64,000 nt of DNA from Candidatus Binatia bacterium (GTDB lineage: Bacteria > Desulfobacterota > Binatia > UBA1149 > JAJCZL01), in the NCBI GenBank assembly GCA_028278325.1, contig JANQEO010000157.1, forward strand, positions 8,533 to 72,532, given 5' to 3'. Of this stretch, positions 12,518 to 47,053 are shown piece after piece. The notes beneath the pieces were generated by a model. It searched no databases, was not told the origin of the DNA, and was given only the letters and a program-made list of their open reading frames with translations. Numbering within the stretch: the stretch's first letter is position 1; every line of letters begins with the position of its first letter. Both the position numbers and the translations under genes were made by a program.

Positions 12518-12554
12518 CTCCCCGCCGGCGCTCGACTCGCCAGACCGAACACGG

Positions 12555-13499: not shown

Positions 13500-14621
13500 C
13501 TACACTCCTCGACTCGTTGCACCCCGACAGGGTTTGCGATGATGCTGCCGCAGGTCCTCGCGGTCAAGCCTTCCCACCCGATCGCGCCGGTCGCGCAGCC
13601 TCTCTATCACCTCTGACAACACGGGTTCGACCGTCTCGGCGTCGATGCCGATCCGCACGGCCCTCAGCCTGACACCGGAAGTATCGAAGCGATCCAGCCG
13701 CACGATGTCTTTCTCCGTCGTGACGACGAAGTCGGCGTCCTTGCCCAGCAGGGCTATGCGCCGCCAATCCTCGTCCGAGTAGGCGTGGTGGTCGGGGAAC
13801 CCGAGAGCGCGATGCAGGATTGCCCCCTCTCTCTCCAAGGTTTCGAAAAACTGAGCGGGATCAGCGATGCCCGCCACTGCGACCACCCGCTTGCCTTCGA
13901 GCATCGACAAGGGCTCGACGGGCGATGCCAGGTCCGAACTTTCCACCAAGCCGAGCGCCACGCGGCCGAGGGGACCGGCCACGATGTCGGCACGCTCGAG
14001 CGCACGCCGGCTCTCTCTCAACGGGCCGGCAGGCAGCATGGCGGCCGAGCCCTCGTTGCCGCGCAGCACGACGATGTCGACATCACGCGCCAAGCTCAGG
14101 TGCTGGAAACCGTCGTCGAGAAGAATCACGTCGGGACGGTAGCGCTGCTCGGCAAGCACGCACCCGGCATGCCTCCGCCGAGCGGCCACGACAGGTCTAT
14201 GGGTGCGCATCGCCATCAGCACGGCCTCGTCGCCGCAGCGGCCGACGAGATCGGCCGCACGCCTGTTGGCGCCTTCTGTCGGCCCGTCATCGCCCGAGTC
14301 ACCCCCGAGGTACACGGCGACAGGCTCCCTCGTGTCGGCGCCGTAGCCTCGTGTGACTATGACCGTTCGTAGGCCGAGGTCAGCGAGCCGGGAGGTCAAC
14401 CAAATGACCAAGGGGGTCTTGCCGCTGCCGCCCACCACGATGTTGCCGACACTCACTACCGGCGTGTCGACGGACGACACATGCAGACTTCCGGTCGAAT
14501 ACAAGCGAGCCCTGACGGCTACCACCAATCGGAACAGCCATGAAAAAGGAGCAAGGACCGCTCGGGCCGCGACCGCGGCGGCTGACTTCGATTCCCAGAC
14601 CCGGACTACGAGCTCGCGCAT
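13500..14621 (-). CDS. lpxK: Tetraacyldisaccharide 4'-kinase
   Basis: SVGNIVVGGSGKTP, RGYG, GDE, LDDGFQH, FPDHH, TTEKD. Confidence 0.94.
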   Translation of the reverse strand: MRELVVRVWESKSAAAVAARAVLAPFSWLFRLVVAVRARLYSTGSLHVSSVDTPVVSVGNIVVGGSGKTPLVIWLTSRLADLGLRTVIVTRGYGADTREPVAVYLGGDSGDDGPTEGANRRAADLVGRCGDEAVLMAMRTHRPVVAARRRHAGCVLAEQRYRPDVILLDDGFQHLSLARDVDIVVLRGNEGSAAMLPAGPLRESRRALERADIVAGPLGRVALGLVESSDLASPVEPLSMLEGKRVVAVAGIADPAQFFETLEREGAILHRALGFPDHHAYSDEDWRRIALLGKDADFVVTTEKDIVRLDRFDTSGVRLRAVRIGIDAETVEPVLSEVIERLRDRRDRVGRLDREDLRQHHRKPCRGATSRGV

Positions 14622-15910
14622 CAGCGTGACCTCAACAACGGCTCCAGCCGAGCGGCCGTGTCGCGCAGCGCTCCACTATGACCGGATATGAGTTCCCTGC
14701 CCCTGCGGCCTTCCTCCGATGCCGCGTCGGCCTCACCGATCCAGTGGTCGAATACCTTCGCCAGCCCTTCCGCGTCGTCGACTATCTTTAGAGCGCCGGC
14801 TTGGGCCAACTCCTCGGCTTGAGCGGCAACATTGGTGAGGCTCGGTCCGCTCGCCATCGGCAGAGCAAAGATCGCGGGCTCGAGAAGATTGTGACCGCCC
14901 ACCTCCACAAGGCTGCCGCCGACAAAGGCGCCCCTCGCCGTCCTCATGAAGCCCCGCAACTCCCCGACCGTGTCCACGACCAGAACCTGCCAATCCTTGC
15001 GTCCGTTGAGACTCGACCAACGCTCGACCTCGAAACCACGCCCGGATGCCAGTCCGGCTACGTCATCACTACGTTCCGGATGGCGGGGGGCCAGCACGAG
15101 GCGAAGCTGCGGAACCCGCGCCATGACGCTGGAAAAAGCATCCAACACCACCTCGTCCTCACCGCTGTGGGTCGATGCAGCGAGCAAGGTCGGCGAACCG
15201 CCGCAGATCGGCTCGAGCAGGTCGGTTGTGGCGGCAGCCTCGTCGACCGAGAGACCATCGTACTTGAGATCGCCGACCACGAAGGTTCGGCCGGCATCCG
15301 CGCCCAGTTCTATCAAGCGCTGCCGTGACTGCGCGTCGCGCGCGCAGACCAGAGCCACGGTGTCGAGCACGATGGCCATGAGGGGACGAATCCGGCGATA
15401 GGACCGCAAGGAACGATCCGAGATGCGAGCGTTGACCATCACGGCCGGAATCCGGCGGCCGGCTGCCTCCAACAGTAGATTGGGCCAGATCTCGGTCTCT
15501 ACCAGGATCAGCAGACGGGGCTCGAGGACATCCAGAAGTGGCTTCAAGATCCACGGGCTATCTAGTGGAAGATAAAAGACTTTATCGGCCTCACTAGCGA
15601 GAGCTACTCGCCGTCCGGTGGGCGTGTTGCAGGTCAGCAGGATGCATACGGACGGATCGGACTGCTTGAGGGACTTGATTACCGCGGAGGCCAGCGCGAC
15701 CTCTCCGACTGAGGCCGCATGAATCCACACGGGCGAGCGCGCAGCAGTTCCCTCGATGCCCCGCCAACGGCCCAACCTATCAGAGTGAAGGGGCTCGCGG
15801 GCCGCGCTCAGCAGTCCGAGTGACCAAGCCGCTGCGTAACCGCGGGTGACCAGCCATGCGAAAGCGCGGTAGAGCGCCAAGAAGACGGAGGAAGCCAACG
15901 GCCTGGGCAC
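14621..15910 (-). CDS. waaA: Kdo transferase
   Basis: WIHAASVGE, ETEIWPN, NARIS, ASTH, PRHPER, GGHNLLEPA; start inferred. Confidence 0.94.
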   Translation of the reverse strand: MPRPLASSVFLALYRAFAWLVTRGYAAAWSLGLLSAAREPLHSDRLGRWRGIEGTAARSPVWIHAASVGEVALASAVIKSLKQSDPSVCILLTCNTPTGRRVALASEADKVFYLPLDSPWILKPLLDVLEPRLLILVETEIWPNLLLEAAGRRIPAVMVNARISDRSLRSYRRIRPLMAIVLDTVALVCARDAQSRQRLIELGADAGRTFVVGDLKYDGLSVDEAAATTDLLEPICGGSPTLLAASTHSGEDEVVLDAFSSVMARVPQLRLVLAPRHPERSDDVAGLASGRGFEVERWSSLNGRKDWQVLVVDTVGELRGFMRTARGAFVGGSLVEVGGHNLLEPAIFALPMASGPSLTNVAAQAEELAQAGALKIVDDAEGLAKVFDHWIGEADAASEEGRRGRELISGHSGALRDTAARLEPLLRSR

Positions 15911-15938
15911 GCGCTCGTCTCGGGCCTGGGTCGGACGG

Positions 15939-16661
15939 TCAGTAGTCTTCGGGCTCGCGACCGGCAATCGAATCAGCCTCCCTACACGCCTGCGAAAGCC
16001 GCCGCTCGAGCTCCAGGCGCAGCGCTTCACGTTCCTGCTTGCTCGGCTTGGCAGTGCCGACACGCAAAGCCTCGCCGGCCACCATGACGACCCTTGCGCC
16101 GAAACGCGGCAGCATCAACCGATCCCAACTTCGAAACCGCCGGCATTTGCTGGCACTGAGGGCCAGCGGGAACAGCGGTGCGCCCGTGTGTACGGCCAGA
16201 TCCACGGCTCCTCGTTTCGCTACCCCGGCAGGCCCTCTCGGGCCGTCGGCGACGAGCGCAATATCGTTACCACGCTTGAAGGCGTGCACCAGCCCCAAGA
16301 TACCGCCCACCGCGCCACGCGAACTCGAGCCCCCGGTAGTGTGAAACCCGAACCGCCTCAGCGCCTGGGACACCGCCATACCGTCCCGGTGCGTGCTGTT
16401 CATGATGTAGGCGCCCGGGCCCGCATAGAAGTACACGGCCATCGGGGCGCGGCCGTGCCACAATGCCAATACCACCGGCTCGCGATTCCGCCAGCAGCGC
16501 TCAAGCTCCTCTGAGTGGTGCGACTCCGTCCTCACGGTCATCCCGATCAGCCTCAGGGCGGACCACATCACAAAGCCCTTCAGCCATATCTCGAGAGCGC
16601 TGTACCAGGCGTAGCGGCGCAGGCCGCGGGCCTGGCGAGGAACATCAGGCGGATTGCTCAC
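15939..16661 (-). CDS. DUF374 family lysophospholipid/lipid A acyltransferase (LpxJ-like)
   Basis: WHG, S-H-RDG, GSSSRG, DGPRGP, WDRLMLP motifs; between msbA and waaA; start uncertain. Confidence 0.82.
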   Translation of the reverse strand: MSNPPDVPRQARGLRRYAWYSALEIWLKGFVMWSALRLIGMTVRTESHHSEELERCWRNREPVVLALWHGRAPMAVYFYAGPGAYIMNSTHRDGMAVSQALRRFGFHTTGGSSSRGAVGGILGLVHAFKRGNDIALVADGPRGPAGVAKRGAVDLAVHTGAPLFPLALSASKCRRFRSWDRLMLPRFGARVVMVAGEALRVGTAKPSKQEREALRLELERRLSQACREADSIAGREPEDY

Positions 16662-18402
16662 GGGCGATGGTATGCTCGTCGTCGAACTGCATGTCGTAGA
16701 AGCGACGATACAGCTTTCCGCTCTGGAAGAGCTTTTCATGTGTCCCGAGCTCGACGATGCGCCCGTCGTCGACCACCGCAATCTTGTCGGCGTTACGCAC
16801 GGTGGACAGACGATGAGCAATGACGAGAGCCGTACGCCCCTCCATCAGCCGGCCCAAGGCCGCCTGCACCAGTTGCTCGGACTTGGAGTCGAGCGCACTC
16901 GTGGCTTCGTCGAGTATGAGAATGGGAGCATCTTTGAGAAGCGCCCGAGCGATTGCCAGGCGCTGACGTTCGCCGCCCGAGAGCTGCACACCCATCTCGC
17001 CGATCTTGGTGTCATAGCCGTCGGGTAATTGAACGATGAAGTCGTGAGCGTTGGCGGCCTTGGCCGCCTCGACGATGTCCTCGTCGCTGCGGTTTATCTC
17101 TCCGTACCCGATGTTGTTCCTGACGGTATCGTTGAACAGGAAGGTCTGCTGAGTCACTACCGCAATGAGGCTTCGCAACGACGACAACTCGATGTCCTTG
17201 ACGTCAATACCGTCGATGCGGATCGAGCCGGAATCGGCCTCGTAGAACCTGGGTATCAGATCCGCCAGAGTGCTCTTGCCGCCGCCGCTAGCACCCACCA
17301 AGGCCACGACCTCGCCGCAGCGCACCTCCAGACTGACGTCGCTGAGAACGTTCTCTGTGCCGTAGGCGAAACTGACGTGCTCGATCTCGATTTTGTCGTG
17401 GAAGCCGTCGATGGTGGCCGCCCCAGGGCGTCCGGACGGTTCGCTCTCGGCATCCAAGATGTCGAAGACCCTCGAAGCGGCTCCCATGCCGGCTTGAATG
17501 GTGTTGTTGGCTTTGACGATCTTCTTGAAGGGGTCGTAGAGCAGCATCAGCGCGGTGAAGAAGGCTGCCATGCCGCTCGTCGTCCTCTCGCCTCCCATCA
17601 GCGAAGCCGAGCCGTACCACACCACCCCCGCGATTCCGCAGGCAGAGGTGAACTCCATCATGGGGCCGGTGAAGGACTTGATCTTGGCGGCACGCAGATG
17701 CAGGCGCAGCACGCGCTCGTTCTCGGAGCGGAAGCGTTCATCCTCGTAGCGTTCCATGCCGAACGCCTTCACCACGCGCGCACCCTGTATCGTTTCCTGC
17801 ACCAAGACCGACAAACCGCCGAGAGTATCGAGTCCGCGACGGCTCAGCCTCCTCATCTTCCTCGATAACTTTTGTAGGGGCAGGACTACGACGGGGAAGA
17901 TGATGGAGAACAAGGCGGCGAGGACCGGGTCGAGATAGAACGCCACGGCAGTGAGCACCAAGAGAGTAGTGGCATCCCTGACTATCGCGGCGCCACCGTC
18001 GGTCAGGGCCTGACGAACCAACAGCACATCGGTCGTGATCCGAGACAAGATGTTGCCCGTCTGCGCCCTGTCGAAGTAGGACAGCGGCATGCTCAGAACC
18101 TTTCTGTCCAGATCCGCCCTCAGGTCCAGAACGATGCGCTGGCCCACCCACTCGCTCAGATACGACTGGCCGTAGTTGACGATGCCGCGTAGGCCGAACA
18201 CGCCGATGATGAACAACGGCTGCATGTTCAGGCCCTCGATGTCACCTGCCTGGAAACGCTCGAACAGTCCCTTGACTATGTAGGGAACAGCCCCCGACGT
18301 GGCGCTGTAGAGCACCATGCACACCAGCGCTCCGATGAAATGAGGCCACAGATACGGCGTGAGGTAGGCGAAGATCCTACGTTCCGCGACGCCGATCTTC
18401 AC
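16645..18402 (-). CDS. msbA: Lipid A export ABC transporter permease/ATPase
   Basis: TM domain plus GASGGGKST, LSGGERQR, LDEATSALD, AHRLST; downstream of lpxB. Confidence 0.92.
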   Translation of the reverse strand: MKIGVAERRIFAYLTPYLWPHFIGALVCMVLYSATSGAVPYIVKGLFERFQAGDIEGLNMQPLFIIGVFGLRGIVNYGQSYLSEWVGQRIVLDLRADLDRKVLSMPLSYFDRAQTGNILSRITTDVLLVRQALTDGGAAIVRDATTLLVLTAVAFYLDPVLAALFSIIFPVVVLPLQKLSRKMRRLSRRGLDTLGGLSVLVQETIQGARVVKAFGMERYEDERFRSENERVLRLHLRAAKIKSFTGPMMEFTSACGIAGVVWYGSASLMGGERTTSGMAAFFTALMLLYDPFKKIVKANNTIQAGMGAASRVFDILDAESEPSGRPGAATIDGFHDKIEIEHVSFAYGTENVLSDVSLEVRCGEVVALVGASGGGKSTLADLIPRFYEADSGSIRIDGIDVKDIELSSLRSLIAVVTQQTFLFNDTVRNNIGYGEINRSDEDIVEAAKAANAHDFIVQLPDGYDTKIGEMGVQLSGGERQRLAIARALLKDAPILILDEATSALDSKSEQLVQAALGRLMEGRTALVIAHRLSTVRNADKIAVVDDGRIVELGTHEKLFQSGKLYRRFYDMQFDDEHTIAREQSA

Positions 18403-19526
18403 GCCATCATCTCCACGGCAAGCCTGGCTGCCCGGTCGGCGGCACCCGGCAAGACCAGCGAGCTTCTGATGCCCGCCAGTTCTTCTTTGGTACGGCGCCG
18501 GTGCGCCTCGTCGTCCAGATAACGGGACACTTCCTCGGCGATCCCGTCGGCGCTGGCCTGAGCCTGAACGAGTTCAGGCACGACTTGACGGTCGAGGATG
18601 ATGTTGGGCATAGCGATAAACGGCACCTTCACCAGGGCCCGCGCCAAGAGATACGACATTCGGGACATTCGGTAGACGACCACCATCGGCAGCCCCATAA
18701 GAGCGCATTCGACGGTGACCGTGCCTGATGTCACGACGGCCACGTCCCCCGCAGACATCAAATTATAGGTATCGCCGGCGATTATGGCGACCTCGAGGCC
18801 TGAAGCGGCCACATAGTCCTCCACCAGGTCGGCGGGGATCCCCGGAGCGCGAGCCAGCGCAACCGTCGCACGACCCTTCAACATGGCGGCACCCTCGAGC
18901 ATTACCGGCAGCATGCTGTGAACTTCCTTACGGCGGCTGCCCGGCATCAACACGAGCAAAGGACGGTCCTGGGGGATGCGATGACGCTCTCTCGTCTCAC
19001 TCGGTTCACGGGAGGCGGCAACATCTTCGGCAAGCGGATGGCCGACGAAATGCGTCTCCAGTCCCCCGCTCTCGTAGAGACCCTGCTCGAATGGAAACAA
19101 CACGACCATTCGATCGACCCTCTGGCAGATCTTGCGAATGCGGCCGCGTCGCCAAGCCCATACTTGAGGGCTGACGTAGTAGAAGACCTTGACGCCGGCC
19201 TTGCGGGCCTTTCGAGCCAGGATGAGGTTGAACTCGGGAAAATCCACGAGAATGAGCAGGTCCGGACGGTTCGGCGACTCGAGATCGTTAACGAGCGTGC
19301 GGTAGCAGCGCCATGCCTGCCGGAAGCCACCGACGGCTTCGGAGAAACCCATGACCGACAGCGAAGCGGCGTCGAAGATCGTCTCGACCCCGGCGGCGCG
19401 CATTTGCTCCCCGCCCACTCCGTAGAACGTCAGGTCGCTACGCTGCTCGCGCATCGCCTTTACCAGGCGGCTCGCTTGGGCGTCACCCGAGGCTTCACCC
19501 GCAACGATCAGAACACGCTCGCCCAC
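18399..19526 (-). CDS. lpxB: Lipid-A-disaccharide synthase
   Basis: AGEASGD, DFPEFN, YVSPQVWAWR, FPFE, GHP, PGSR, SGT. Confidence 0.96.
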   Translation of the reverse strand: MGERVLIVAGEASGDAQASRLVKAMREQRSDLTFYGVGGEQMRAAGVETIFDAASLSVMGFSEAVGGFRQAWRCYRTLVNDLESPNRPDLLILVDFPEFNLILARKARKAGVKVFYYVSPQVWAWRRGRIRKICQRVDRMVVLFPFEQGLYESGGLETHFVGHPLAEDVAASREPSETRERHRIPQDRPLLVLMPGSRRKEVHSMLPVMLEGAAMLKGRATVALARAPGIPADLVEDYVAASGLEVAIIAGDTYNLMSAGDVAVVTSGTVTVECALMGLPMVVVYRMSRMSYLLARALVKVPFIAMPNIILDRQVVPELVQAQASADGIAEEVSRYLDDEAHRRRTKEELAGIRSSLVLPGAADRAARLAVEMMA

Positions 19527-19534
19527 GGCCGCGC

Positions 19535-20506
19535 TCAGCCGTGGAACTCGGGTTCGGGCATGGACGCCAGAACGCGATCCGCCATGTCCAGCGCGCGAAG
19601 CCCCTCGGCGGCACCCACCAAAGGCCGTCCCCCTTCGCGCACACATCTGACGAACTCCGCTATCTCGCGGTTGAGCGGATCACCCCCTGCGAACTCGCGT
19701 TGGCTGACCTCGATGGCCGCCATGGGGTTGTCAGGCGCGACAGCGGCCTTGTCCGGGTCACGCGTGGCGATCACCGCCTGACCACCGTCGAAGTCGAACG
19801 ACACGTAGGCGCTAGGCTCGAAGATGCGCAGCTTACGTTCGCGCTTGAGTGAGACCCTGCTAGCCGTGACGTTGGCCACGCAGCCCCCCGCGAAGCGCAA
19901 GCGAGCGTTGGCTATGTCGGGCCGTTCGCTGAGCACCGGCACCCCGATGGCCTCGACCGCTTCGAGTTCGTCGCCGACGAGGAAGTCGATGAGGTCGAGG
20001 TCGTGGATCATCACATCATGCACCACGCTCGCATCCGTGCCGCGCCCTGCGAACGGTGAGAGGCGGTGACATTCGATGAAACGAGGATTGGTGACGCGTT
20101 CGTGGACTTCTTCGAACACGGGATTGAAGCGCTCGAGATGTCCGACCTGCAGCACGATCCCCGCTTCGGCGGCTGCATCCGCCAGGCTCCTCGCCTCCGC
20201 ACTGGAGGCCGCCAGCGGCTTTTCCATCAGAGCGTGCACTCCGGCCCTTGCGGCCGCCAACCCGGACTCGAGATGAGCGGCCGTCGGCACCGCGATGCTT
20301 ACGGCTTCGACTGACTCCAATAGCTCGTCGCAGGATTCGAAGGCTCGGCAGCCTGATGCCTCGGCGACCTCGCGTGCCCGGTCCGTGTCCGTGTCGTAGA
20401 CGCCGACCAGATCAGCCGTGTCGAGCCCCGCGTACTTGGAAGCGTGCAGGGCGCCGAGGTAACCGACGCCGACAACGCCGACAGGTGTTCTACGTCCAGG
20501 AGACAT
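19535..20506 (-). CDS. Gfo/Idh/MocA oxidoreductase, GnnA-like UDP-GlcNAc 3-dehydrogenase
   Basis: GVGYLG, EKPLA, GHLERFNP, DVMIHDLD, TASRVS; position between lpxA/lpxI and lpxB is typical of gnnA. Confidence 0.8.
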   Translation of the reverse strand: MSPGRRTPVGVVGVGYLGALHASKYAGLDTADLVGVYDTDTDRAREVAEASGCRAFESCDELLESVEAVSIAVPTAAHLESGLAAARAGVHALMEKPLAASSAEARSLADAAAEAGIVLQVGHLERFNPVFEEVHERVTNPRFIECHRLSPFAGRGTDASVVHDVMIHDLDLIDFLVGDELEAVEAIGVPVLSERPDIANARLRFAGGCVANVTASRVSLKRERKLRIFEPSAYVSFDFDGGQAVIATRDPDKAAVAPDNPMAAIEVSQREFAGGDPLNREIAEFVRCVREGGRPLVGAAEGLRALDMADRVLASMPEPEFHG

Positions 20507-21323
20507 CGCCGCTCTCGTCCCCGCTGAAGCCGATTACCGATACCCCTGCGGAGTCGGCCGCCTCGACCAGCCCTTCTGCCTCGAGGATGATCGTCGACCC
20601 CGCCTCCAAAGCCAGAACCGCGGCCCCGGCACCTGCCATAGTTTCAATCGTCGCGGGACCGACGGCCGGCACATCGAAACGCAGATCCTGGCCGGTCTTG
20701 GCCGCCTTGACCACGACGGCCTTGCCGCGGCCGATTTCGCCTGCACGCCGGATGGCGGCGTCCGTCCCTTCGATGGCCTCCACCGCCAGGATCATGCCGT
20801 TCTCGACAACCACGCTCTGGCCTACGTCCAGAGGACCGAGGGCGCGCAGCGCTCTCAGCCCCAGCGCGACGTCGGCGGCCACAGCCGGATCGGGCGCGGG
20901 GCCGGCGATCAGCCCCTTCGAGGAAACGATCTTGTCGAGGAAGAGAGTGGACGGCACGATCTCTATACCTTCGCTTTCGAACTCGCCGGCAAGGCGACGC
21001 AACAACGCATCGTCACCCTTGCCCAGGGACTTTCTCAAGAACTTGAGACCCCGCCAATCCGGCCTCACACTGGCCAAGCTCCTCGCCTTGTTTATACCGC
21101 CGGCCATGACCGCACGCTTGATCCCGGCTTTCTTGAACGTCGAGATCATCTTGCCGAGTTGGCCGACCCTGACCCAGGTCAGAGCGTCGACTTCGGGCTC
21201 GAGCTGTCGCGTAGTCTCGCCGCGGTGAGCCACCGCCGTCACGCCATAGCCGCGCGAACGTGCTTCGCGGGCGAAGATCAAGGGAAAGGTGCCGTTGCCT
21301 GCGATTAGGCCGATCTTTTCCAT
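20490..21323 (-). CDS. lpxI: UDP-2,3-diacylglucosamine pyrophosphatase LpxI
   Basis: GLIAGNG-FP, DVGQ, AVEAIEGTD, QDLRFDVPAVG. Confidence 0.93.
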   Translation of the reverse strand: MEKIGLIAGNGTFPLIFAREARSRGYGVTAVAHRGETTRQLEPEVDALTWVRVGQLGKMISTFKKAGIKRAVMAGGINKARSLASVRPDWRGLKFLRKSLGKGDDALLRRLAGEFESEGIEIVPSTLFLDKIVSSKGLIAGPAPDPAVAADVALGLRALRALGPLDVGQSVVVENGMILAVEAIEGTDAAIRRAGEIGRGKAVVVKAAKTGQDLRFDVPAVGPATIETMAGAGAAVLALEAGSTIILEAEGLVEAADSAGVSVIGFSGDESGDVSWT

Positions 21324-21334
21324 AGCGCTCGAGC

Positions 21335-22120
21335 TTAACGGCACACGCCGCGCTCGGAGTTCTCTACGAACTCACGCACCACCTTCACGTACTCGGAGTC
21401 GGCATACTCATCGGCCACGCGCGACAACGCGTCGCTGAGGCGCAGCGAAGACTGGAACAGTATCTTGTAAGCGCCCTTGATGTCGGCGATCGCCTTGCTG
21501 TCGAGGCCACGCCTCTTGAGGCCTACGATGTTGAGTCCGACTTGCTTGGCACGGTTGCCGTGAACCATGCAGTACGGGGGCACGTCGAGTACCACCATGG
21601 CCCCTCCGCCCAACATGGCGGACTGGCCGATTTTGACGTGTTGATGCACGGCTACCAGGCCACCGAGGATGGCGAAGTCTTCGATTACCACGTGACCGCC
21701 CATCGTCGCACAATTCGCCAGCACCACGCTGTCGCCGATCGTACAGTCATGGGCCACGTGCGAGTAGGACATGAGCAAGTTGCTGTGCCCGACCCTCGTC
21801 ACGCCGCCACCCCCTTCGGTGCCGCGATTGAGGCTGGCAAACTCCCGTATGCTGTTGTCGTTGCCTATCTCGAGAGTGGTAGGCTCTCCGGCATACTTGA
21901 GGTCCTGGGGCGCAGATCCGATGGTGGCGAACTGAAAAATATGATTCCCGCTGCCGATGCGGGTGCCGTCTTCGACGACGACATGTGGCCCGATCTGGGT
22001 GTCGTCACCTATGACGACGTCCGACCCTACGACGCTGTAGGCCCCGATCTTGACGCCTTGACCCAGTGACGCCCCCGAACCGACCACGGCGGTCTCGTGT
22101 ATTTCAGTCGGCCTAGTCAC
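21335..22120 (-). CDS. lpxA: Acyl-ACP--UDP-GlcNAc O-acyltransferase
   Basis: Hexapeptide repeats, PQDLKY, IRE, HVAHDC, HQ, GLNIVGLKR; alternative start 22138. Confidence 0.96.
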   Translation of the reverse strand: MTRPTEIHETAVVGSGASLGQGVKIGAYSVVGSDVVIGDDTQIGPHVVVEDGTRIGSGNHIFQFATIGSAPQDLKYAGEPTTLEIGNDNSIREFASLNRGTEGGGGVTRVGHSNLLMSYSHVAHDCTIGDSVVLANCATMGGHVVIEDFAILGGLVAVHQHVKIGQSAMLGGGAMVVLDVPPYCMVHGNRAKQVGLNIVGLKRRGLDSKAIADIKGAYKILFQSSLRLSDALSRVADEYADSEYVKVVREFVENSERGVCR

Positions 22121-22631
22121 CAGGACGTTTGGCCGCATTGGCCGCCTTGATAACCTCTTCGGTCAGGTCCGGTTTGTCGGACACGTAAAGCAGCGTGGAC
22201 GCGTCGAGGATCAGGTCATAGCCATGCTTCTCCCCGTAGTCCTGAATCACCTCGCGCAGGAACTCGTTGACCTTGGCCATTACTCCCGCCTCGGTCTTTC
22301 GAAGGCTCCGCTGGAAGTCTTCCTTGAGACGCTTGGCATCGAGTAGCTCGCGCTCGAGCTCCTCTCCCGCCTTCTTGCGCTCCTCCTCGCTCAACACCAT
22401 CGCACGGCGCTGGAGATCGGCCTCGAGATCCTTGATCTCCTCGAGCTTCTTCTCCAGCCCACCCTGAGCATCCTCCATCTTTTCCTTGAGTTCGGCCGCC
22501 GCGGCTTTGCCGACCTCGGTCTCGGCGATGAGCCGCTGGGTGATGATATAGCCGATCTTGAGATCCTCGGCGTGCAGCGGGGCGGCCGCTAGGACTGTAA
22601 ACAAGGTTGCCGTCAGAACTGTACGCATCAT
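22113..22631 (-). CDS. skp: OmpH/Skp periplasmic chaperone
   Basis: Signal peptide, KIGYI, coiled-coil, GYDLILD..DLTEEVIK; AAAGGAG upstream; follows bamA. Confidence 0.88.
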   Translation of the reverse strand: MMRTVLTATLFTVLAAAPLHAEDLKIGYIITQRLIAETEVGKAAAAELKEKMEDAQGGLEKKLEEIKDLEADLQRRAMVLSEEERKKAGEELERELLDAKRLKEDFQRSLRKTEAGVMAKVNEFLREVIQDYGEKHGYDLILDASTLLYVSDKPDLTEEVIKAANAAKRPGD

Positions 22632-22644
22632 GACTCCTTTCATA

Positions 22645-24975
22645 TCAAAACGGTGCACCGAACGAGAACTGGACGACGCTGGAGTCCTCATCGTCCTCCG
22701 GGTCCAGGGGATAGCCTATCTCCACGCGCAGCGGCCCCAAGGGCGAGAGCCACCTAATGCCCCAGCCCACAGCGTACCTCAAATCGCCTACATCCAGCCC
22801 GTCTTCGGCCGTAAACGCGTTGCCCGCATCGAAGAACAGGACGCCCTTGAAGCCGGCATCGGGGATGATGGGGATGAGGAAGTCGTTGTTGAATATCAGC
22901 TGGCTGCTCCCGCCGATCTCCTCTTCGTTGATGATCTCCCCATCGTCGATGGTCACACCGGTCGGACCGAGAGTGCGGGTCTCGAATCCTCGGTGGGAGT
23001 TTATACCGCCGGGAAAATACCGTTCGAACAGGGGCAGTTCCTCGCCGCTGGTTCCCGAATCCCCGATGCCGTAACCAAGAGTGGTGCCGAGGGAGTAGAC
23101 GAAGATCCTGCCGCCCTTGGTCCTGAACACCGGCCAGTACCAGCGCCCGCTCGCTTCGAGCTTGATGAAATCGGATTCGCCCCCAAGGCCGGCGAACTCA
23201 GCGGACAGCACTTGCCGTGACCCGCGCGCGGGATCGAAAGGATGATCGAGGGTGCTGCGGATCAACCGCGGCGATATGCTGCTCGTCAGCGAGGTTCCCT
23301 CCTCGATCTTGATTTCGGGCGGGGCATCTCCGGCAACCGCGTCGATCTCGGCCTGTTCCAGCCGGTACTCGAGTCCTATGCGCACGCGCGCCAGCGAAAG
23401 CCCGAGGAAAGACTCGTAGCCCAAATCACGCAGCGGATAGGATGATCTGATCGCGAAGCCGGTACCGCCGCGGTCGAAGTCGTCGAACTCGAGCTTCCAG
23501 TTGAACAGATCGCCCCCCAGACTCAGGGGGCGTCCCCCGAACCACGGCTCCGTGAAACTCAGCTGGAAGTTTTGCCTCGTGCTTCCGAAGTCGGCGTTGA
23601 GCACGGCACGCTGGGCGCGCCCGAAGAGGTTCTGCTCCGAAACACGGGCGTTGAACACGAAGTTGTCACCCGAACTGAAGCCGGCACCGGCAGAGAAGGT
23701 GCCGGTCCGGCCCTCCTTGACCTGCACCAGCAAGTCGAGCTGGTCCTCGACCTCCGTCCTGTTGGTGGTGAGCTCGACCTCGTCGAAGAAGCCCAGGCGC
23801 CTGATGGCCTCACGGCTCCGGCGCAGCCCCTCGCCCGAAAAGGTCTGGCCCTCGTGGATCTGCAGCTCCCTGCGGATGACGTGGTCACGGGTCTTGGTGT
23901 TGCCCCTTATCTCGACACGGCGAACGGTCACGCTGGGCCCGCTCGAGATCTCGAACACGATATCGACGAGACGGTCGGACTCGTTGATGCTCGTTTGGGG
24001 TACGACCTCGGCGAAGGCGTGGCCCAGATTGCCGTAGCCCTCGACCAGCGAGAATATCGCTTCCCTCAGCGCGCTGGCCTTGAAGCCGTCGCCGGTCTTG
24101 ACCCGGCTGAAGAAACGCAACTCGTCGTCGGTCATCAACAGATCACCGGCGAAGCTCACATCACCGACACTGTAGTGAGGCCCCTCGTCGATCTTCATCC
24201 GTATGATGAGGCCGTCATCGCCACGCTCGATCACGGGCTCGTCGATGCGCACCTGGATGTAGCCGTTGTCGTAGTAGAAGGCCGTCAAGCGCTCCACATC
24301 CGAAGCGATCTCGTCTTCGTTGAGCAAGCCTGCGCCGGTGAGCCAAGAAAACCACCACCGCTCCTTGGTTGCCATCACCTTGCGCAACCTGTCGTGGTCG
24401 AACGCCTTCACACCTTCGAACTTGATCTTGTCGACACGCACCAGCTCGCCTTCGTTGACCGCGTAGACGACCTTGACCTCCTGGTCACCGATCGGTCGCA
24501 GCTCTATCTCGATGGTGGTGTCGGGATACCCCTCGCTGGCGTACAGTTTGTGGGCGTCACGCAGCCCCTCCCACGCCTTCCGGGGGTCGTAGATGGCCCG
24601 CTCCCGTATCTTGACCTCGGCGGCGAGATCTTCCTCGGAAACCTCGTCGACGCCCTCGAACACGATCTCGGCCACGTAGGGGTGTTCCTTGACGTGGTAG
24701 GTCAGTATCGTGCCGGACTCGGCGGACAACTCGGTGACCCACACGTTCTCGAAGAGGCCGAGTTCGTAGATGGCCCGCACGTCGGAGTCGATCGCGTCGT
24801 AGTCGATCTCCTCTCCCGGCTGGATGGTGATCTGGGCCCTTACCGCACCCGCCTCCACTCGGTGGGTTCCCGCGACCCGCACTTCGGCGGCCCTGCTCGC
24901 GGCTCCCACCTGCGAGTAGGCCAACGATGAGAGCAGGAGTGCGGTGATGAGAAGTCGGCCCGAAGGTTTGCTCAA
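22645..24975 (-). CDS. bamA: Outer membrane protein assembly factor BamA
   Basis: POTRA repeats (GNTKTRDHVIRRE), barrel with RGF motif, SPLGPL, C-terminal Phe; TTG start overlapping lolD stop. Confidence 0.95.
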   Translation of the reverse strand: MSKPSGRLLITALLLSSLAYSQVGAASRAAEVRVAGTHRVEAGAVRAQITIQPGEEIDYDAIDSDVRAIYELGLFENVWVTELSAESGTILTYHVKEHPYVAEIVFEGVDEVSEEDLAAEVKIRERAIYDPRKAWEGLRDAHKLYASEGYPDTTIEIELRPIGDQEVKVVYAVNEGELVRVDKIKFEGVKAFDHDRLRKVMATKERWWFSWLTGAGLLNEDEIASDVERLTAFYYDNGYIQVRIDEPVIERGDDGLIIRMKIDEGPHYSVGDVSFAGDLLMTDDELRFFSRVKTGDGFKASALREAIFSLVEGYGNLGHAFAEVVPQTSINESDRLVDIVFEISSGPSVTVRRVEIRGNTKTRDHVIRRELQIHEGQTFSGEGLRRSREAIRRLGFFDEVELTTNRTEVEDQLDLLVQVKEGRTGTFSAGAGFSSGDNFVFNARVSEQNLFGRAQRAVLNADFGSTRQNFQLSFTEPWFGGRPLSLGGDLFNWKLEFDDFDRGGTGFAIRSSYPLRDLGYESFLGLSLARVRIGLEYRLEQAEIDAVAGDAPPEIKIEEGTSLTSSISPRLIRSTLDHPFDPARGSRQVLSAEFAGLGGESDFIKLEASGRWYWPVFRTKGGRIFVYSLGTTLGYGIGDSGTSGEELPLFERYFPGGINSHRGFETRTLGPTGVTIDDGEIINEEEIGGSSQLIFNNDFLIPIIPDAGFKGVLFFDAGNAFTAEDGLDVGDLRYAVGWGIRWLSPLGPLRVEIGYPLDPEDDEDSSVVQFSFGAPF

Positions 24976-25649
24976 CCGGTCTCCTCCTCCACCAGCAACC
25001 CATCCTTCAACCGTAGTGTCCGGTCCATGAGCGATGCGAGGGAAACACTGTGGGTAGCAACAACCATCGCACAACCCACCTTCGCCTGTGCATTGAGCAG
25101 CAGCCTGTAGATGCGGTCGGCCGACTCGGGGTCCAGGTTGCCGGTCGGCTCGTCGGCCAGTACGACCGAGGGTTCGGTCACCAGGGCGCGGGCGACGGCG
25201 ACACGCTGCTGCTCCCCGCCCGAGAGCTCTCCCGGCCTGTGAGTCGTTCGATCGACCAGGTCCACGCTCTCGAGCATGTCGAGGGCCCGCGATCTAGCGG
25301 TCGCACGGCTCTCCCCCCCTACCAGGAGCGGCATCATGACGTTCTCGAGAGCGTCGAAATCACCGAGCAGGTGATGGAACTGGAACACGAAGCCGATGGC
25401 GGAGTTGCGGAGCTCCGCCAGACGTTTCTCAGGCAACGCGAACAAGTCCTCATCATCCACCTTCACACTGCCGCCGTCGGGTCTATCGAGAGCACCGAGC
25501 AGATTCAGAAGCGTACTCTTGCCGACCCCCGATTGGCCGATAATGGCCGTAGTCTCGCCCTTGCCCACATGGAGGCTGGTGCCTCTGAGCACTTCGATGA
25601 TCCGGCGGCCGTCATCGTATTTCTTCTTGAGGTCAACCGCGTCCAGCAT
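24972..25649 (-). CDS. lolD: Lipoprotein-releasing ABC transporter ATPase
   Basis: [35 protein letters not shown]. Confidence 0.93.
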
Positions 25650-40451: not shown

Positions 40452-40457
40452 ACGCCC

Positions 40458-41714
40458 TTAGCCGAAACGCTTCCAGATCTCTTTCACCAGCGCGATGTTG
40501 GCCGAGTGTCCGGTCTTGCGTGCATGCACTGCGCCCCGTAGCGGTGCGCCCAGCAAGTAGAAATCGCCCATTATGTCGAGGATCTTGTGGCGGGCGAGTT
40601 CCTCGGGGAAACGCAGCTCCGTGTTGACGATACCGGTGTCACCGATGAGGATGAAGTTGCTCAGTTGCCCACCCTGGCCGAGCCCCGCATTCTCTAAGGC
40701 TCGTATCTCTTCAACGAAGCCGAAGGTTCGAGCCGGGGCGATCTCGTCCCTGAAGGACGCGGGCCCGGTGAAATCGAAAGTGTAGGTCTGCTCTCCGACC
40801 GGCTCGGGGTAGGACAGCTCGTAGGTAACGCGAAAGCCATCGTGAGGAACGATCGAGATGTGCTCGTCGTCGCCGAAGTCCAGCCGCACCTCCTCGTCCA
40901 CGGCCACCGCGGGCCGCCACGAATCCTGATCTTCGACTCCTGCCGACTCGACCATCTTGCAGAACTCGACCGCCGAGCCGTCCAGAATGGGGACCTCGCC
41001 TTCCACCTTTACGAGCAGGTTGGTGACACCATAGGCGTGCAGAGAGGCCATGAGATGCTCCACCGTGCGAGCGCTCATGCCGTCTTTGTGCAGAGTCGTC
41101 GCGTAACCGGTGGAGTCTACGTTGTCTACGTGGGCTGCAACGTAGCCTTCTCCCGCCACGCTGCCGAAGCGGATACCGCTGCCGGCCGGCAGAGGGTGCA
41201 GGATCAGACCGGTCCTGACGCCGCTGTGCAACCCCTGGCCACCGCCCACGACACTTCGGCTGAGCGTCCTTTCCATGACGGACGGACCCTGCACGCCAGC
41301 CGAGTTTCCGGACGGCCCCAGTTCGGCCCTGCTATCACCGAGTTCGTCCCCCGAACTGCGAAGAGCACGACGGATGGACCCGAGTAACCCGTCGATCGAA
41401 AAGGGCTTCTCGATGAAGTCGACGGCGCCAAGCTTGGTGGCCTTGACGGCGGTCTCCACGTTGCCGTGCCCGGATACCACGATCACGGGCAGGTCACTGC
41501 GAGCGGATCTCAATTCCTGAAGCAACTGGATGCCGTCCATCTCCGGCATCCAAACATCGAGAAGGACCAGGCGAGGATCCGTCGCCCCGAGCTTGGAGAT
41601 AGCCTCACTGCCGTTGCCGGCGGTTTCGACCTGGAAGCCCTCATCTCTCAACACGCCACCGATCGAGTCCCGAACGTTGGCGTCGTCGTCGACTATCAAT
41701 ATCGTCTCGTTCAT
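40458..41714 (-). CDS. lpxC: Response-regulator receiver domain fused to UDP-3-O-acyl-GlcNAc deacetylase (REC-LpxC)
   Basis: aa ~1-120 REC (IVDDD, LLD53VWMP, SGHG, KPF); linker; from aa 147 LpxC (ERTL, GLHSG, TVEH, PILDGSA, ARTFGF, HKILD, GH-AN); one uninterrupted frame. Confidence 0.93.
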   Translation of the reverse strand: MNETILIVDDDANVRDSIGGVLRDEGFQVETAGNGSEAISKLGATDPRLVLLDVWMPEMDGIQLLQELRSARSDLPVIVVSGHGNVETAVKATKLGAVDFIEKPFSIDGLLGSIRRALRSSGDELGDSRAELGPSGNSAGVQGPSVMERTLSRSVVGGGQGLHSGVRTGLILHPLPAGSGIRFGSVAGEGYVAAHVDNVDSTGYATTLHKDGMSARTVEHLMASLHAYGVTNLLVKVEGEVPILDGSAVEFCKMVESAGVEDQDSWRPAVAVDEEVRLDFGDDEHISIVPHDGFRVTYELSYPEPVGEQTYTFDFTGPASFRDEIAPARTFGFVEEIRALENAGLGQGGQLSNFILIGDTGIVNTELRFPEELARHKILDIMGDFYLLGAPLRGAVHARKTGHSANIALVKEIWKRFG

Positions 41715-41721
41715 ACCCGCT

Positions 41722-43989
41722 TCATGCCTTGCCCGTCTCGGCCACAGCCGCATCTTCGATCTTGGCCGGGAATTCTATCGTGAACCGGCTGCCACTGGGC
41801 ATATTGTCGCGCAACCGGATGTAGGCCTGGTGCTCGGCGGCTACCGAGGCCACGATGGCCAGGCCCAATCCGGTACCGTCGTCCTTGGTCGAGAAATACG
41901 GCTCGAACACCCTGGCCTTGTCCTCCGCCGAGATCCCCGGCCCGTTGTCGGCCACTTCAAGTATCACTCTAGATAGCGCCTTGTCGAATGTCGTCTTTAC
42001 TCGGATTTGATTGGAGCCCGCTTCCTGACCGTTGGCTTCGGCCGGCGAAGATCCGGCGGAAACCGACACGGCATTGTCCAGCAGGTTGATCAGGGCCCGC
42101 TTCACGCCGTCCCGGTTCATCATCACGGGCGGCAAGCTCTCTCCCCTCTCGAAGCCAATGTCCATATCGGGCCAGGCCTGACGATACAGCGGCAGGGTCT
42201 CGGCCACGATGTCGTTGAGATCGTGCAGGGACTTTTCGGTGTCACCACCCTGGGTGAAGCGGGAGAACTCGTTGACGAGGTTCTTGAGGTGGTCGACCTG
42301 GTCGACGATCGTAGTGGTGCATTCGTCGAACAGCACGGCATCATCGCCCTCGACGCTCTCGCCCAGACGTCGCTTGAGCCGCTGAGCGGAAAGCTGGATG
42401 GGGGTCAGAGGGTTCTTGATCTCGTGAGCAATCCTGCGCGCGACCTCCTTCCAGGCCTCCGTGCGCTCGACCGCGACGATCTGGGACACATCCTCGAAGA
42501 ACAGGACGGAGCCCGCAGCGCTTCCGCTGCGACGCAACAACGCTGTAGCCGTCACGAGCAAAGTCCTGCCCTCTTCTTTGCGCTGGATGTTGCGCCGTGT
42601 CCCCGAAGGCAGAGCCCCTGAGTTGAGCTCCTCGAGCATGGCGGCAACCTCGGGATAGCCTGCATCCGTGAACACGCCTATGGCCTCACGCCCGACCAGA
42701 CCCGAGGCCGGCAGACCCAGCAAGGATACGGCAGCCGGATTGACGGTACTGATCAGATGCTGGCTGTCCACGGAAACCACGCCGGCCGCCACGTTGGCCA
42801 GCACGTTCTCGATGTATCGGCGACGTTCGTCGAGATCTTCATGGGAAGTCTGCAACTGACCGGTCATCGAATTGAACGCCCTCACCAGTGTCGCAACCTC
42901 GTCTCCGCCCGTTTCCTCGATCTTCACGCCCCATCGTCCTGCCGCGACATCTTGTGTCGCCTCGGCGAGTCGCCCGATAGGGTCGGTTATGCTTCGAGCC
43001 AGGTAGATGCCGACCCACGTGGCACTGAAGACGACTACGAGAGACGCTAGAGAGAGGGTCAGTATGTAGAGGTTTCGAAACGGTCTTCGGCTCTGCTTGA
43101 GCTGCCGGTAGTCGCGGTAGGAGTCGAGGATGTCCTGGCTCCAGGCCTTGGCGCTGCGTTTGACCAGATAGTCGACGATAACGGCACCGACGACCTCCTC
43201 GCCCGAGCGGCCTCCGTAGACCGGCGAACCCCCACGGATGATGTCGGACTCGCCCAGCACCTCCACGCGTGTCGCATCCTCCCCGAGGAAGGTCTCGTCG
43301 AGAAGCTCACGGTCCGCCTTCAGAGGCAGTCCCGTCGGTGCCTGCTCGTTGAACTGGACCACCCGCTGCTCACCCTGGCGGTCGAAAATCTGGACGGTGC
43401 CGAGGTTGTAGCTGCGCTGATGCTCCTCGACCAGAGCTTCGAGACGGCGCTTGTTCCTGAGGCCACTGCCCCCGTCGGCCGAAATCGCCCGGCTTATCGC
43501 ACGCGAATGCAGCAACGCGTCGGCCGCCGACTCCTCGTAGTAGGTATGCGCCAAGCTCCACGCTCCCTCCAACGACTCTTCGACCTCGGTGCTGAACCAA
43601 CCGTCGATGGTGTTGGTGAAGAACTCCATGGACACGAGCAACAACACCAGGGCCGGGAACGCGGCGATGGTCACGAACGCCATCACCATCCGCCCCTTCA
43701 ACTGGCTTCCGAGAACGCGTTGCCTTCGCTCGACCACCAGCTTCGTAAGGTTGCGCACGACCAAGAAGATCAAGAGGAGAAGGAGGATGATGTTGGTGTT
43801 GATGAGAAGGAAGGAGAATACGTTGCCGGCTGCGCCGCGCGCGTTGGGGTTGCGGATCTCCCAGAGCGCGAAGAACAGCACCGCTAGACCCGCGGCGAGG
43901 ATTATCAAGCCTTCGAAGCGACGCCTGCGTGCTTCTTCCTGACTGGGGCCGGAGGGTTCGTCGGGCAGTGCGTTGGGGTCGCTCGTCAC
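41722..43989 (-). CDS. NtrY-like membrane sensor histidine kinase (TM-HAMP-PAS-HisKA-HATPase)
   Basis: WF-x-x-V periplasmic start, HAMP (DEV..L..FN-M), [27 protein letters not shown]-box, [21 protein letters not shown]. Confidence 0.93.
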
Positions 43990-45011
43990 TCGAACAAGTC
44001 CGCCTGGGCTGCGCTCGGGGTTACGCCGAGATGTTCGTAGGCGCGCGATGTCGCCACGCGCCCCCGCGGCGTCCTTTGCAGGAAGCCCTCTCTTATCAGG
44101 TAGGGCTCGTAAACCTCCTCGAGTGTTCCCGAATCCTCACCCACGGCCGCCGACAGCGTCTCGACGCCGACGGGGCCGCCGTCGAACTTCTCTATTATCG
44201 TCGTAACCAACAGGCGGTCCATGGAATCGAAGCCGGCCTCGTCCACTCCCATGACGCCGAGCCCGTCCCTGACCACATCGTGGGTTATGCGTCCCGCGGC
44301 TTTCACCTGGGCATAGTCACGCAACCGCCGCAGCAGGCGGTTGGCAATGCGCGGTGTTCCTCTGGAGCGTCGCGCTATGTCGAAGGCCGCTTCGTCGTCC
44401 AACCCCACCTTGAGAAGATCCGCAGAGCGCCGGACGATGGAGGCCAGTTCTTCATGGTCGTAGAAGTCGAGCCTGAAGGTGCTGCCGAAACGCGACCGCA
44501 ACGGCGCCGTCAAGAGACCCGAGCGGGTGGTGGCGCCGACGAGCGTGAACGGCTCGACATCTATGTTGATGGAGCGGGCGGACGCCCCCTCACCCACCAC
44601 GAGGTCTATGCGGAAGTCCTCCATCGCCGGGTAGAGGATTTCCTCGACCGTCTTCCCGAGCCTGTGTATCTCGTCGATGAACAGAACGTCGTTGGGCTCC
44701 AACGACGTGAGGATGGCCGCCAGATCGCCTCCCTTCTCGATCACGGGGCCGCTGGTCTGATGAATGTGGGCGCCCACCTCCACCGCCAGGATGTGAGCCA
44801 GCGACGTCTTGCCCAACCCGGGTGGGCCGATGAGAAGAACGTGATCGAGTGCTTCACCTCGGGCACGGGCCGCGCGGATGGAAATGTCGAGGTTCTCCGT
44901 TACCTCCCGTTGACCGACGTAGTCGGCAAGCCGGGACGGCCTGAGGCTGACCTCTCCGCCGGCGTCGTAGCCGGTTTCGATCGGGGCGAGCGCGTCACCC
45001 GCGTCGCTCAC
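43986..45011 (-). CDS. ruvB: Holliday junction branch migration helicase RuvB
   Basis: [36 protein letters not shown]. Confidence 0.97.
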
Positions 45012-46119: not shown

Positions 46120-46141
46120 CCATCTCCTCCCTGCACCGCGC

Positions 46142-46891: not shown

Positions 46892-47053
46892 GCCTATCCC
46901 GTGCGCGAGCGTCGAGTCATACGCGGACACGGCCATGCCGGCCGGCGGCAAACGGTTACACGCCCGCGAAATTGTCTGCTATCATAGCAAATTGGAGTAG
47001 TAAACGTAGGCGCACGGCGGCCTTTGCTCCGTTCTTTCAAGCGAGTTCCGACA

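Follow-up and report, generated by a model that had tools for sequence, protein, structure and literature searches.

A receiver domain fused to LpxC beside an NtrY-like kinase in Candidatus Binatia: a probable two-component system with a lipid A enzyme as its response regulator

The deacetylase LpxC carries out the committed step in the making of lipid A, for which it serves as the valve, and is a major target for antibiotics; what has been described of its regulation outside a few proteobacteria is sparse, amounting, in the portion of a recent review that treats it, to proteolysis via FtsH, LapB and YejM, to Lon and to transcription (PMC12444477). We report here on a gene of Candidatus Binatia bacterium, located in a stretch of 64,000 nucleotides (nt) that we name the window (GenBank assembly GCA_028278325.1, contig JANQEO010000157.1, positions 8,533 to 72,532, forward strand), where a response-regulator receiver (REC) and a complete LpxC are encoded in one frame directly downstream of the gene of an NtrY-like sensor histidine kinase. 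It appears probable to us that these two genes make a two-component system in which a lipid A enzyme is the response regulator, derived from an lpxC-ntrY-ntrX transcriptional system. Response regulators with enzymatic outputs are already known; what would be new, as far as we have found, is LpxC as the output, together with a preserved series of forms leading from transcription to fusion.

Two described systems link two-component signalling to lpxC. The pair DVU2931/DVU2934 of Desulfovibrio vulgaris Hildenborough, with lpxC as the single mapped target of the regulator DVU2934, is in the published map a two-component system dedicated to lpxC, and the same source places lpxC directly upstream of the orthologous operon in Syntrophobacter fumaroxidans (Rajeev et al., 2011, PMC3333781); the order lpxC, kinase, regulator is that of all ten such loci that we retrieved from the window's phylum. 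The output of this system, as it is presented there, is DNA binding upstream of lpxC, whereas in the protein of the window the AAA+ and DNA-binding parts are gone and the receiver sits in the enzyme. The second system is NtrYX, reported to repress lpxC in Rhodobacter sphaeroides and Caulobacter crescentus (PMC12444477, PMC7240162); in the former, loss of NtrYX was accompanied by an 8.8-fold rise of lpxC mRNA and an approximately 2-fold rise of lipopolysaccharide (LPS), and the account given there has no NtrX site at lpxC (PMC7240162). The kinase of the window has the same architecture as NtrY (NtrY_N-HAMP-PAS-HisKA-HATPase) and the receiver is closest to NtrX models and structures, but the alphaproteobacterial effect is, in those accounts, transcriptional and belongs to a large regulon, being indirect in R. 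sphaeroides, and NtrX itself is a REC-AAA+-HTH protein, ending in a helix-turn-helix (HTH) domain. The fusion appears to derive from such a link between lpxC and NtrYX or a two-component system, moved to the post-translational level.

Other described systems resemble the protein in its form or in the step controlled. In CheB phosphorylation of the receiver relieves the inhibition of the catalytic domain, which the receiver otherwise occludes; an N-terminal receiver, a flexible linker, a C-terminal hydrolase and a partner kinase are common to both proteins, the likeness being known here from sequence alone, and the difference lies in the output domain, which is LpxC. Natural fusions of LpxC to a second domain are represented by LpxC/FabZ (NF009667), with the difference that the partner is there a pathway enzyme placed at the C-terminus, and here a signalling domain placed at the N-terminus. 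In Escherichia coli the same step, with LpxC as the lipid A valve, is under post-translational control by FtsH, LapB (YciM) and YejM, which, in the outline given by the review, operates by proteolysis (PMC12444477), via a C-terminal degron and an adaptor and not via aspartyl phosphorylation. Full-text literature searches, with most subscription journals outside their coverage, returned no paper describing a receiver-LpxC protein or a phosphorylation of LpxC, and a term search of the 2025 review on lipid A regulation gave, in the text covered, 0 occurrences of 'receiver' or 'fused' (PMC12444477). Databases display the architecture but name the protein simply LpxC. A first interpretation of this DNA, made from its letters (hereafter the sequence-only reading), had held that no characterised example of such a circuit was known: this stands as far as the fusion is concerned, and has to be amended for lpxC control in general, for which transcriptional two-component precedents are published.

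The kinase and the fusion are laid out as follows, in coordinates of the window.

40458..41714, minus strand: receiver-LpxC fusion gene, 418 amino acids (aa), Response_reg plus LpxC
41349..41714, minus strand: receiver domain, residues 1-122, with D9/D10/D11, D53, S81 and K103
41556-41558, minus strand: codon of the phospho-acceptor D53, within the receiver
41283..41348, minus strand: linker, residues 123-144, rich in G, S and P
40458..41282, minus strand: LpxC (UDP-3-O-acyl-GlcNAc deacetylase) domain, residues 145-418, and the stop codon
41715..41721, minus strand: spacer of 7 nt, AGCGGGT, between the kinase stop TGA and the fusion ATG
41722..43989, minus strand: NtrY-like sensor histidine kinase gene, 755 aa, directly upstream of the fusion

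The open reading frame (ORF) that encloses the fusion, 40458..41753 on the minus strand, has 431 aa; its codon 14 is the ATG at 41714, from which the protein begins MNETILIVDDD, and we place the start there, giving 418 aa, because the relatives (417-435 aa) begin at the equivalent of codon 14. Pfam assigns residues 5-114 to Response_reg (1.1e-31) and residues 149-414 to LpxC (4.7e-81; 272.6 bits, the cut-off being 27; positions 2-267 of the 268 in the profile), and the NCBIfam model TIGR00325 lpxC reaches 222.5 bits, over its cut-off of 187.25; the bifunctional LpxC/FabZ model NF009667 stays under its own, at 196.6 against 465 bits. Residues 143-411 align with solved LpxC structures (5.2e-50), in which TVEH, HKILD..GD and GH fall on the same motifs; in the translation these motifs read T217-V218-E219-H220, H376-K377-I378-L379-D380 and G402-H403, and the residues that match catalytic or zinc positions of LpxC are E219/H220, H376/K377/D380, D384, H403 and T330, the zinc and catalytic residues of E. 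coli LpxC being, as we take them, E78, H79, H238, D242 and H265. On the side of the receiver the motifs are D9-D10-D11, D53, S81-G82-H83-G84 and K103-P104-F105. Its best response-regulator model in NCBIfam is NtrX, with 141 bits over residues 4-121 only, the best regulator structures for residues 4-135 are 4d6x and 5m7n, which we take to be Brucella NtrX entries, and its identity to alphaproteobacterial NtrX receivers is 39-52%. The fusion is not for all that an NtrX, since 141 bits stand against a cut-off of 600 (NF051870), and Pfam finds neither AAA+ nor HTH; nor does any protein of the same genome pass that NtrX cut-off, the best having 378.5 bits. On these comparisons, we regard the fusion as derived from a regulator of the NtrX/NtrC type and not as a member. 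What the sequence-only reading had described at the locus was recovered in this way: a 418-aa frame 7 nt behind an NtrY-type kinase (ORF, stop, spacer and ATG are all seen), an intact NtrX-like receiver (all named motifs present, NtrX as best regulator model), a G/S-rich linker of about 25 aa (G-, S- and P-rich residues 123-144) and a complete LpxC with zinc ligands and catalytic residues (Pfam, TIGR00325 and structure alignment).

The two halves of the protein have kept the residues of their respective chemistries. Across 75 aligned short fusions, the most distant of which is 32% identical to the query, D10, D53, S81 and K103 of the receiver are invariant, as are E219, H220, H376, K377, D380, D384 and H403 of the LpxC domain, with D9 and T330 at 90% or more; judged from this alignment, receiver and LpxC halves are both under purifying selection. 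A reading of the N-terminal domain as a pseudo-receiver was rejected on the invariance of its phospho-chemistry residues. The linker shows no majority residue anywhere in the consensus of the same 75 proteins, its length goes from about 22 to 34 aa among the short forms listed, and AlphaFold2, run on the family alignment, gives a predicted local distance difference test (pLDDT) under 50 to residues 124-137, so that it is predicted to be disordered. The model of the whole fusion has a pLDDT of 90 and a predicted template-modelling score (pTM) of 0.85, which, as far as a model can tell, seems too high for two independently placed domains. A complex prediction of the receiver (1-122) against the LpxC domain (145-418), run without controls, gave a score of 0.01 against a mark of 0.32 and counts neither way.

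The kinase has the NtrY architecture, the five Pfam domains NtrY_N (42 bits), HAMP, PAS, HisKA and HATPase_c all being above their cut-offs. The H-box of its HisKA domain reads AHEIKNPL; N-terminal membrane segments frame an extracytoplasmic stretch of about 180 aa, which has a weak dCache_3 match under the Pfam cut-off, and the PAS domain is cytoplasmic. The best NCBIfam match is HK_LIC11548, with 244 bits against a cut-off of 750, and there is no NtrY equivalog among the 25 NCBIfam families listed. With 7 nt between the two genes, kinase and fusion are probably translationally coupled, and a scan of 40000-47500 showed no promoter- or terminator-like site between them, the counts being those expected from shuffled sequence.

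The putative circuit is, as judged from the genomes and collections searched, class-wide, with related fused forms in other lineages, and not peculiar to the genome of origin. The sample of the window's class comprised 41 genomes from 13 GTDB families, including the genome of the window (6.09 Mb in 468 contigs, 95% complete, 8.7% contaminated), and a complete one-frame fusion was present in 38 of them, a count which, as the others given here, overstates the number of events because related genomes are not independent. Contig ends cut the fusion in G016 and G028, and none was found in G002, which is 90% complete. A family search with comparison of coordinates returned exactly one LpxC match in 40 of the 41, always at the fusion locus. 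The sequence-only reading had seen no other lpxC in the window, and the lipid A cluster at 11786..25074 indeed contains none; in the whole 6.09-Mb assembly the one LpxC-family match is the fusion gene. On this gene content, a sole copy with the remaining Raetz pathway in the window, the fusion is the housekeeping LpxC. A second lpxC elsewhere in the genome had been considered as a candidate and was rejected on that single match. In 37 of the 41 genomes the gene immediately before the fusion, in the same orientation, is that of the kinase (counting G028, where an N-terminal fragment of the fusion stands at the contig end); in G016 and G021 both genes are cut by contig ends, in G002 the kinase is cut and LpxC was not found, and we return below to G007. 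A single strong kinase homologue per genome is present in 40 of the 41 genomes.

In wider sampling, all of the best 120 protein clusters listed from a large protein collection have both domains (63-100% identity), the source names of the best clusters including Candidatus Binatia, Deltaproteobacteria and others, and the ESM Atlas holds 17 clusters of at least 50 members in which both domains are present in 100% of members. This recurrence across class genomes, protein clusters and the Atlas excludes a chimeric join; the sequence-only reading would have been undone by a chimeric fusion or by one missing in relatives, and neither is the case. The continuity of the DNA across the linker, which that reading had singled out, also appears in a separately assembled contig of 11,860 nt that spans 40400-44000 with 0 differences and no joints; the one public DNA run found to hold 40400-44000 is labelled coral metagenome, its two sister runs hold next to none, no RNA run is listed for the stretch, and the contig is not independent and adds little, since this run may be the source sample. 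Some close homologues carry implausible source labels, such as L031 (a Promethearchaeota contig), P0037 (Hyphomicrobiaceae) and P0091/P0106 (Limnocylindrales); these probably reflect binning errors, and organism names of homologues need care.

How the receiver came to be attached to LpxC can be approached from the genomes in which lpxC has remained free. We surveyed 151 genomes of the window's GTDB phylum, 136 of which have a single strong match to the kinase. Among the 96 stand-alone lpxC genes of genomes with a kinase match, 29, tallied by eye and spread over 18 GTDB families, precede the kinase on its strand at a distance of no more than 1.5 kb, and one more is 3.6 kb from it. Ten of these loci were fetched (L107-L116, from G073, G179, G114, G082, G042, G061, G139, G153, G120 and G069), and in 10/10 the order is lpxC, kinase, then a regulator of 450-474 aa with REC and AAA+ (in L112 the frames overlap and the ORF reads longer). 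In the one locus that was scanned with Pfam, the regulator consists of REC, Sigma54_activat (239 bits), lid and HTH_8, and the kinase has the same NtrY architecture as ours. In six of the ten loci, two of these six being from one genus, the 100 nt that precede the stand-alone lpxC contain an element TGG-N9-TGC, as in sigma54 promoters, where 0.14 per 430 nt would be expected; this suggests a sigma54-dependent transcription of lpxC widespread in the phylum. Where the genome has a fused LpxC and an unlinked kinase, none of the six loci fetched has a REC-encoding ORF within about 2.7 kb of the kinase. A regulator is thus found beside the kinase where LpxC is free (10/10), and none where it is fused (6/6). 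Going by these gene orders, lpxC and the kinase were linked before the fusion arose.

Forms that combine the parts of both arrangements exist. A search of 1.84 billion representative proteins, followed by Pfam scans, yielded three further architectures, with LpxC domains in proteins 46-52% identical overall to the query: a long form of 650-736 aa, with Response_reg, sigma54-type AAA+, AAA lid and LpxC, in which HTH_8 passes the cut-off in three (P0124, P0129, P0131) of the six proteins given a scan at a loose threshold; an intermediate form REC-HTH_8-LpxC (P0126, 25.7 bits; P0128 is just under the cut-off); and a second intermediate form, with REC, a spacer of 53-62 aa and LpxC. By source name the long forms are in Nitrospina or Nitrospinota bins, P0126 in a Candidatus Entotheonellia bin, and in the Nitrospinota locus L032 an NtrY-like kinase is immediately followed by a long form of 677 aa. 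In the phylum survey a full-length short fusion occurs in 16 genomes, an LpxC at the end of a frame of 690-837 aa in 11 and an LpxC inside a frame of 450-497 aa in 8; of these 19 longer-frame cases 12 were retrieved, and every one of the 12 shows the expected REC(+AAA+)+LpxC content. The other 104 LpxC matches are stand-alone genes, whose open frames measure about 280-510 aa, in most cases about 280-390. One genome, G074, has a fused LpxC (L100, G074:C11; 438 aa, beside a radical SAM gene) together with a stand-alone lpxC (G074:C33:20150-20959) that lies directly upstream of an NtrY-like kinase; it may represent an extant intermediate, or else have arisen by a transfer.

The state of the AAA+ domain distinguishes the free regulators from those that became attached to LpxC. 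GAFTGA or GSFTGA, Walker A and the Walker B hhhDE are kept in 10/10 stand-alone regulators; in the long fusions GAFTGA is lost in 14/14 and the hhhDE of Walker B in 13/14, the site reading D-S, D-G, D-D or D-R. Walker A is kept in 13 of the 14 long forms (P0122-P0141); despite its decay, the AAA+ domain may have retained nucleotide binding or may act as a module for oligomerization. The parts needed for transcription have decayed and the receiver has been kept, which is the pattern expected if the receiver acts on the enzyme. The best reading of these sequences would be that the output has moved from transcription to the enzyme itself.

A tree of the LpxC domain (IQ-TREE quick search with SH-aLRT, the Shimodaira-Hasegawa-like approximate likelihood ratio test; 112 rows, unrooted) was made from 158 sequences, 46 of which were left out for covering fewer than 250 of the 274 query positions or for split matches; its sampling favours fused proteins, as the rows are the best matches of a fused query. 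All 51 fused or N-truncated rows (21 short, 16 long, 9 intermediate, 5 N-truncated) fall on the same side of a branch whose SH-aLRT support is 98, together with four rows of the stand-alone class and one other row; the opposite side has 55 stand-alone rows and one other. Within the fused side the long, intermediate and short forms are interleaved, the starred branches forcing at least four changes for the short form, and the window's class makes its own clade of six rows (support 99). The tree of the receivers (68 rows, 119 columns) is mostly poorly supported, with many long branches, and does not place the receiver of the window's class; 14 of the 16 long-form receivers are grouped in it with regulators beside NtrY (support 87, not starred).

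In the scenario that we favour, a sigma54-type two-component system lying beside lpxC would at first have controlled the transcription of this gene; the regulator would next have been fused to LpxC as REC-AAA+-HTH-LpxC, with lpxC placed 3' of the regulator perhaps, as a suggestion, by a tandem duplication of the cluster; AAA+ and HTH would then have decayed and been deleted several times, the phospho-chemistry of the receiver being always kept, to leave REC-LpxC. In present-day cells, the NtrY-like membrane kinase would phosphorylate D53 of the receiver, which a flexible linker of about 22 aa tethers to the sole LpxC of the cell. The phosphorylated receiver could alter LpxC catalysis through a contact between receiver and enzyme, in the manner of CheB, or its phosphorylation could alter the stability of LpxC. 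We favour a direct control of activity via receiver-LpxC contact, by analogy with CheB; the flexible, unconserved tether and the pTM of 0.85 lean in the same direction. Since this LpxC is the only one, the signal more likely tunes the enzyme than turns it wholly on or off. The phosphotransfer, the effect on LpxC and its direction, and the signal sensed, are steps that we infer.

Several observations weigh against this scenario, or at least against its simplest version. The orthology of the window-type kinase and regulator to DVU2931/DVU2934 is one that we infer from the gene order as published. The LpxC tree is unrooted, and the direction of the change (one gain or one loss) therefore rests on the decay of AAA+, not on the tree; three seemingly complete, Met-starting stand-alone LpxCs (P0162, P0184, P0191) are found inside the fused clade, so that the receiver may have been lost again in places. 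In the receiver tree the receivers of the class fall in a starred group with alphaproteobacterial NtrX and long-branched paralogues from their own genome, and as a comparison of sequences this tree gives no confirmation of a descent from the regulator beside NtrY. The adjacency of ntrY across genomes, which the sequence-only reading had proposed to examine, holds within the class and fails in intermediate and other short fused lineages: among the loci checked, the kinase is unlinked in 5/5 intermediate forms, in 5/5 short forms from outside the class and in 2/5 long forms, being adjacent in the other three long forms and also in G046, G113 and L032. Fusions without a neighbouring kinase are likewise seen in L026, L027, L029 and L030 (labelled Syntrophorhabdaceae, Syntrophobacterales or Syntrophaceae), the genes upstream of the fusion in L026 encoding PhoH and a 7TM-HD protein. 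Finally, in G007 (L099, G007:C185) ruvB is directly followed by the fusion, without the kinase at the locus, and the genome has no kinase match at E <= 1e-60; this means that the fusion can exist without a linked kinase. The G007 fusion has diverged (52-55% identity, Response_reg 83 bits), yet its receiver has kept the four key residues.

Among the explanations that compete with a direct action of the receiver on catalysis, the one that survives best, which we nevertheless consider rather unlikely, is that the receiver controls the abundance of LpxC: phosphorylation would expose or hide a degron, or recruit FtsH, Lon or ClpXP, in replacement of the LapB/FtsH route. Proteolysis, by FtsH and Lon, is the control described for LpxC elsewhere, in what the review says of it (PMC12444477). 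In the fused proteins the tail that follows xGH is short (median 17-18 aa, where the 35 stand-alone forms compared have a median of 28 aa), and only 15 residues follow H403 in the LpxC of the window. The C-terminal degron of LpxC was reportedly described by Fuhrer et al. in 2006; with tails so short a degron of the E. coli type is unlikely in the fused LpxCs, and control by proteolysis would need another handle. No protease-recognition element is apparent in the sequence of receiver or linker, however, and the linker is unconserved; this alternative is besides a sub-variant of the proposed two-component control of LpxC rather than its contradiction. The LapB model PF18073 has a single match in the genome of the window, but it also matches in 10 of 14 control genomes, Gram-positives included, and its match is therefore uninformative.

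That the receiver is an evolutionary leftover, LpxC being constitutive and the fusion merely keeping it co-expressed with the kinase operon, is in our opinion very improbable. The decay of AAA+ and HTH after fusion does show that fused parts can become useless, and the stand-alone LpxCs inside the fused clade, as well as G007 without its kinase, are what a dispensable receiver might leave behind. Against this, the four phospho-residues are invariant in the 75 fusions and kept even in G007, they stayed in place when the neighbouring AAA+ and HTH were repeatedly lost, and the kinase is single-copy in 136 of the 151 phylum genomes and adjacent to the fusion in 37 of the 41 of the class. An artefact of assembly or gene calling, in the form of a chimeric contig or of two genes read as one, which a fragmented metagenome bin of 468 contigs with 8.7% contamination might bring to mind, can be dismissed, as the same single frame recurs in 38 of the 41 class genomes, the best 120 clusters listed and the 17 Atlas clusters, and shows no stop codon or frameshift, nor any difference from the separate contig (the run of which may be the source).

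A bolder version of the proposed two-component control of LpxC can be imagined, to which we would give somewhat less than an even chance: the NtrY-type kinase would report on the envelope through its extracytoplasmic or PAS domain, aspartyl phosphorylation would switch LpxC within seconds, with neither transcription nor proteolysis, and lpxC-ntrY-ntrX, REC-AAA+-HTH-LpxC (Nitrospina-type), REC-HTH-LpxC and REC-LpxC would be successive stages in one rewiring from transcription to post-translational control, with the alphaproteobacterial NtrYX-lpxC link as a remnant of the same ancient circuit.

The remaining features of the window that surround the two genes, or that belong to the same pathway, are these.

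43986..45011, minus strand: ruvB, directly upstream of the kinase
45008-45772, minus strand: ruvA, in the same-strand run with ruvB
45577-46227, minus strand: ruvC, in the same-strand run with ruvB
46142-46951, minus strand: yebC, in the same-strand run with ruvB
11786..25074, minus strand: lipid A and outer-membrane cluster, with BamA, LpxA, LpxI, a GFO/IDH/MocA oxidoreductase, LpxB, MsbA, WaaA, LpxK, an epimerase and a Kdo kinase
37634-39025, plus strand: GspL_C gene, type II secretion-like
39022-39576, plus strand: T2SSM gene, type II secretion-like
39573-40451, plus strand: ORF of 292 aa, without a Pfam family

The run yebC, ruvC, ruvA, ruvB, on one strand, terminates in the kinase and the fusion; the start of the kinase overlaps the stop of ruvB by 4 nt, and ruvB also precedes the kinase in the related loci L014-L016 and L019-L022. 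The type II secretion-like genes (37634-40451, plus strand) converge on the end of the fusion gene, an arrangement conserved among the three closest loci, L014-L016. In the lipid A cluster, the UDP-diacylglucosamine hydrolase step is represented by LpxI (LpxI_N and LpxI_C; 20490-21344, minus strand), not by LpxH, and an oxidoreductase of the GFO/IDH/MocA family (19535-20506, minus strand) is found between lpxI and lpxB. GnnA-like enzymes of this family are, we assume, the makers of the 3-amino sugar for lipid A of the GlcN3N type; if the oxidoreductase is GnnA-like, the substrate of the fused LpxC may be unusual.

A receiver-fused LpxC would add a new mode to those by which this valve is known to be set, namely direct phosphoryl control by a two-component system. 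Since the fusion is the only LpxC of these genomes, the prediction can be put to a direct test with purified proteins. The fusion would provide as well an independent argument, of the 'Rosetta-stone' kind, that NtrY-type kinases are regulators of the envelope and of LPS, which bears on what NtrYX senses. Taken as a whole, the family may be understood as a natural record of the output of a regulator moving from the promoter to the enzyme that it controls and, with intermediate stages extant in different lineages, this rewiring would be open to study stage by stage.

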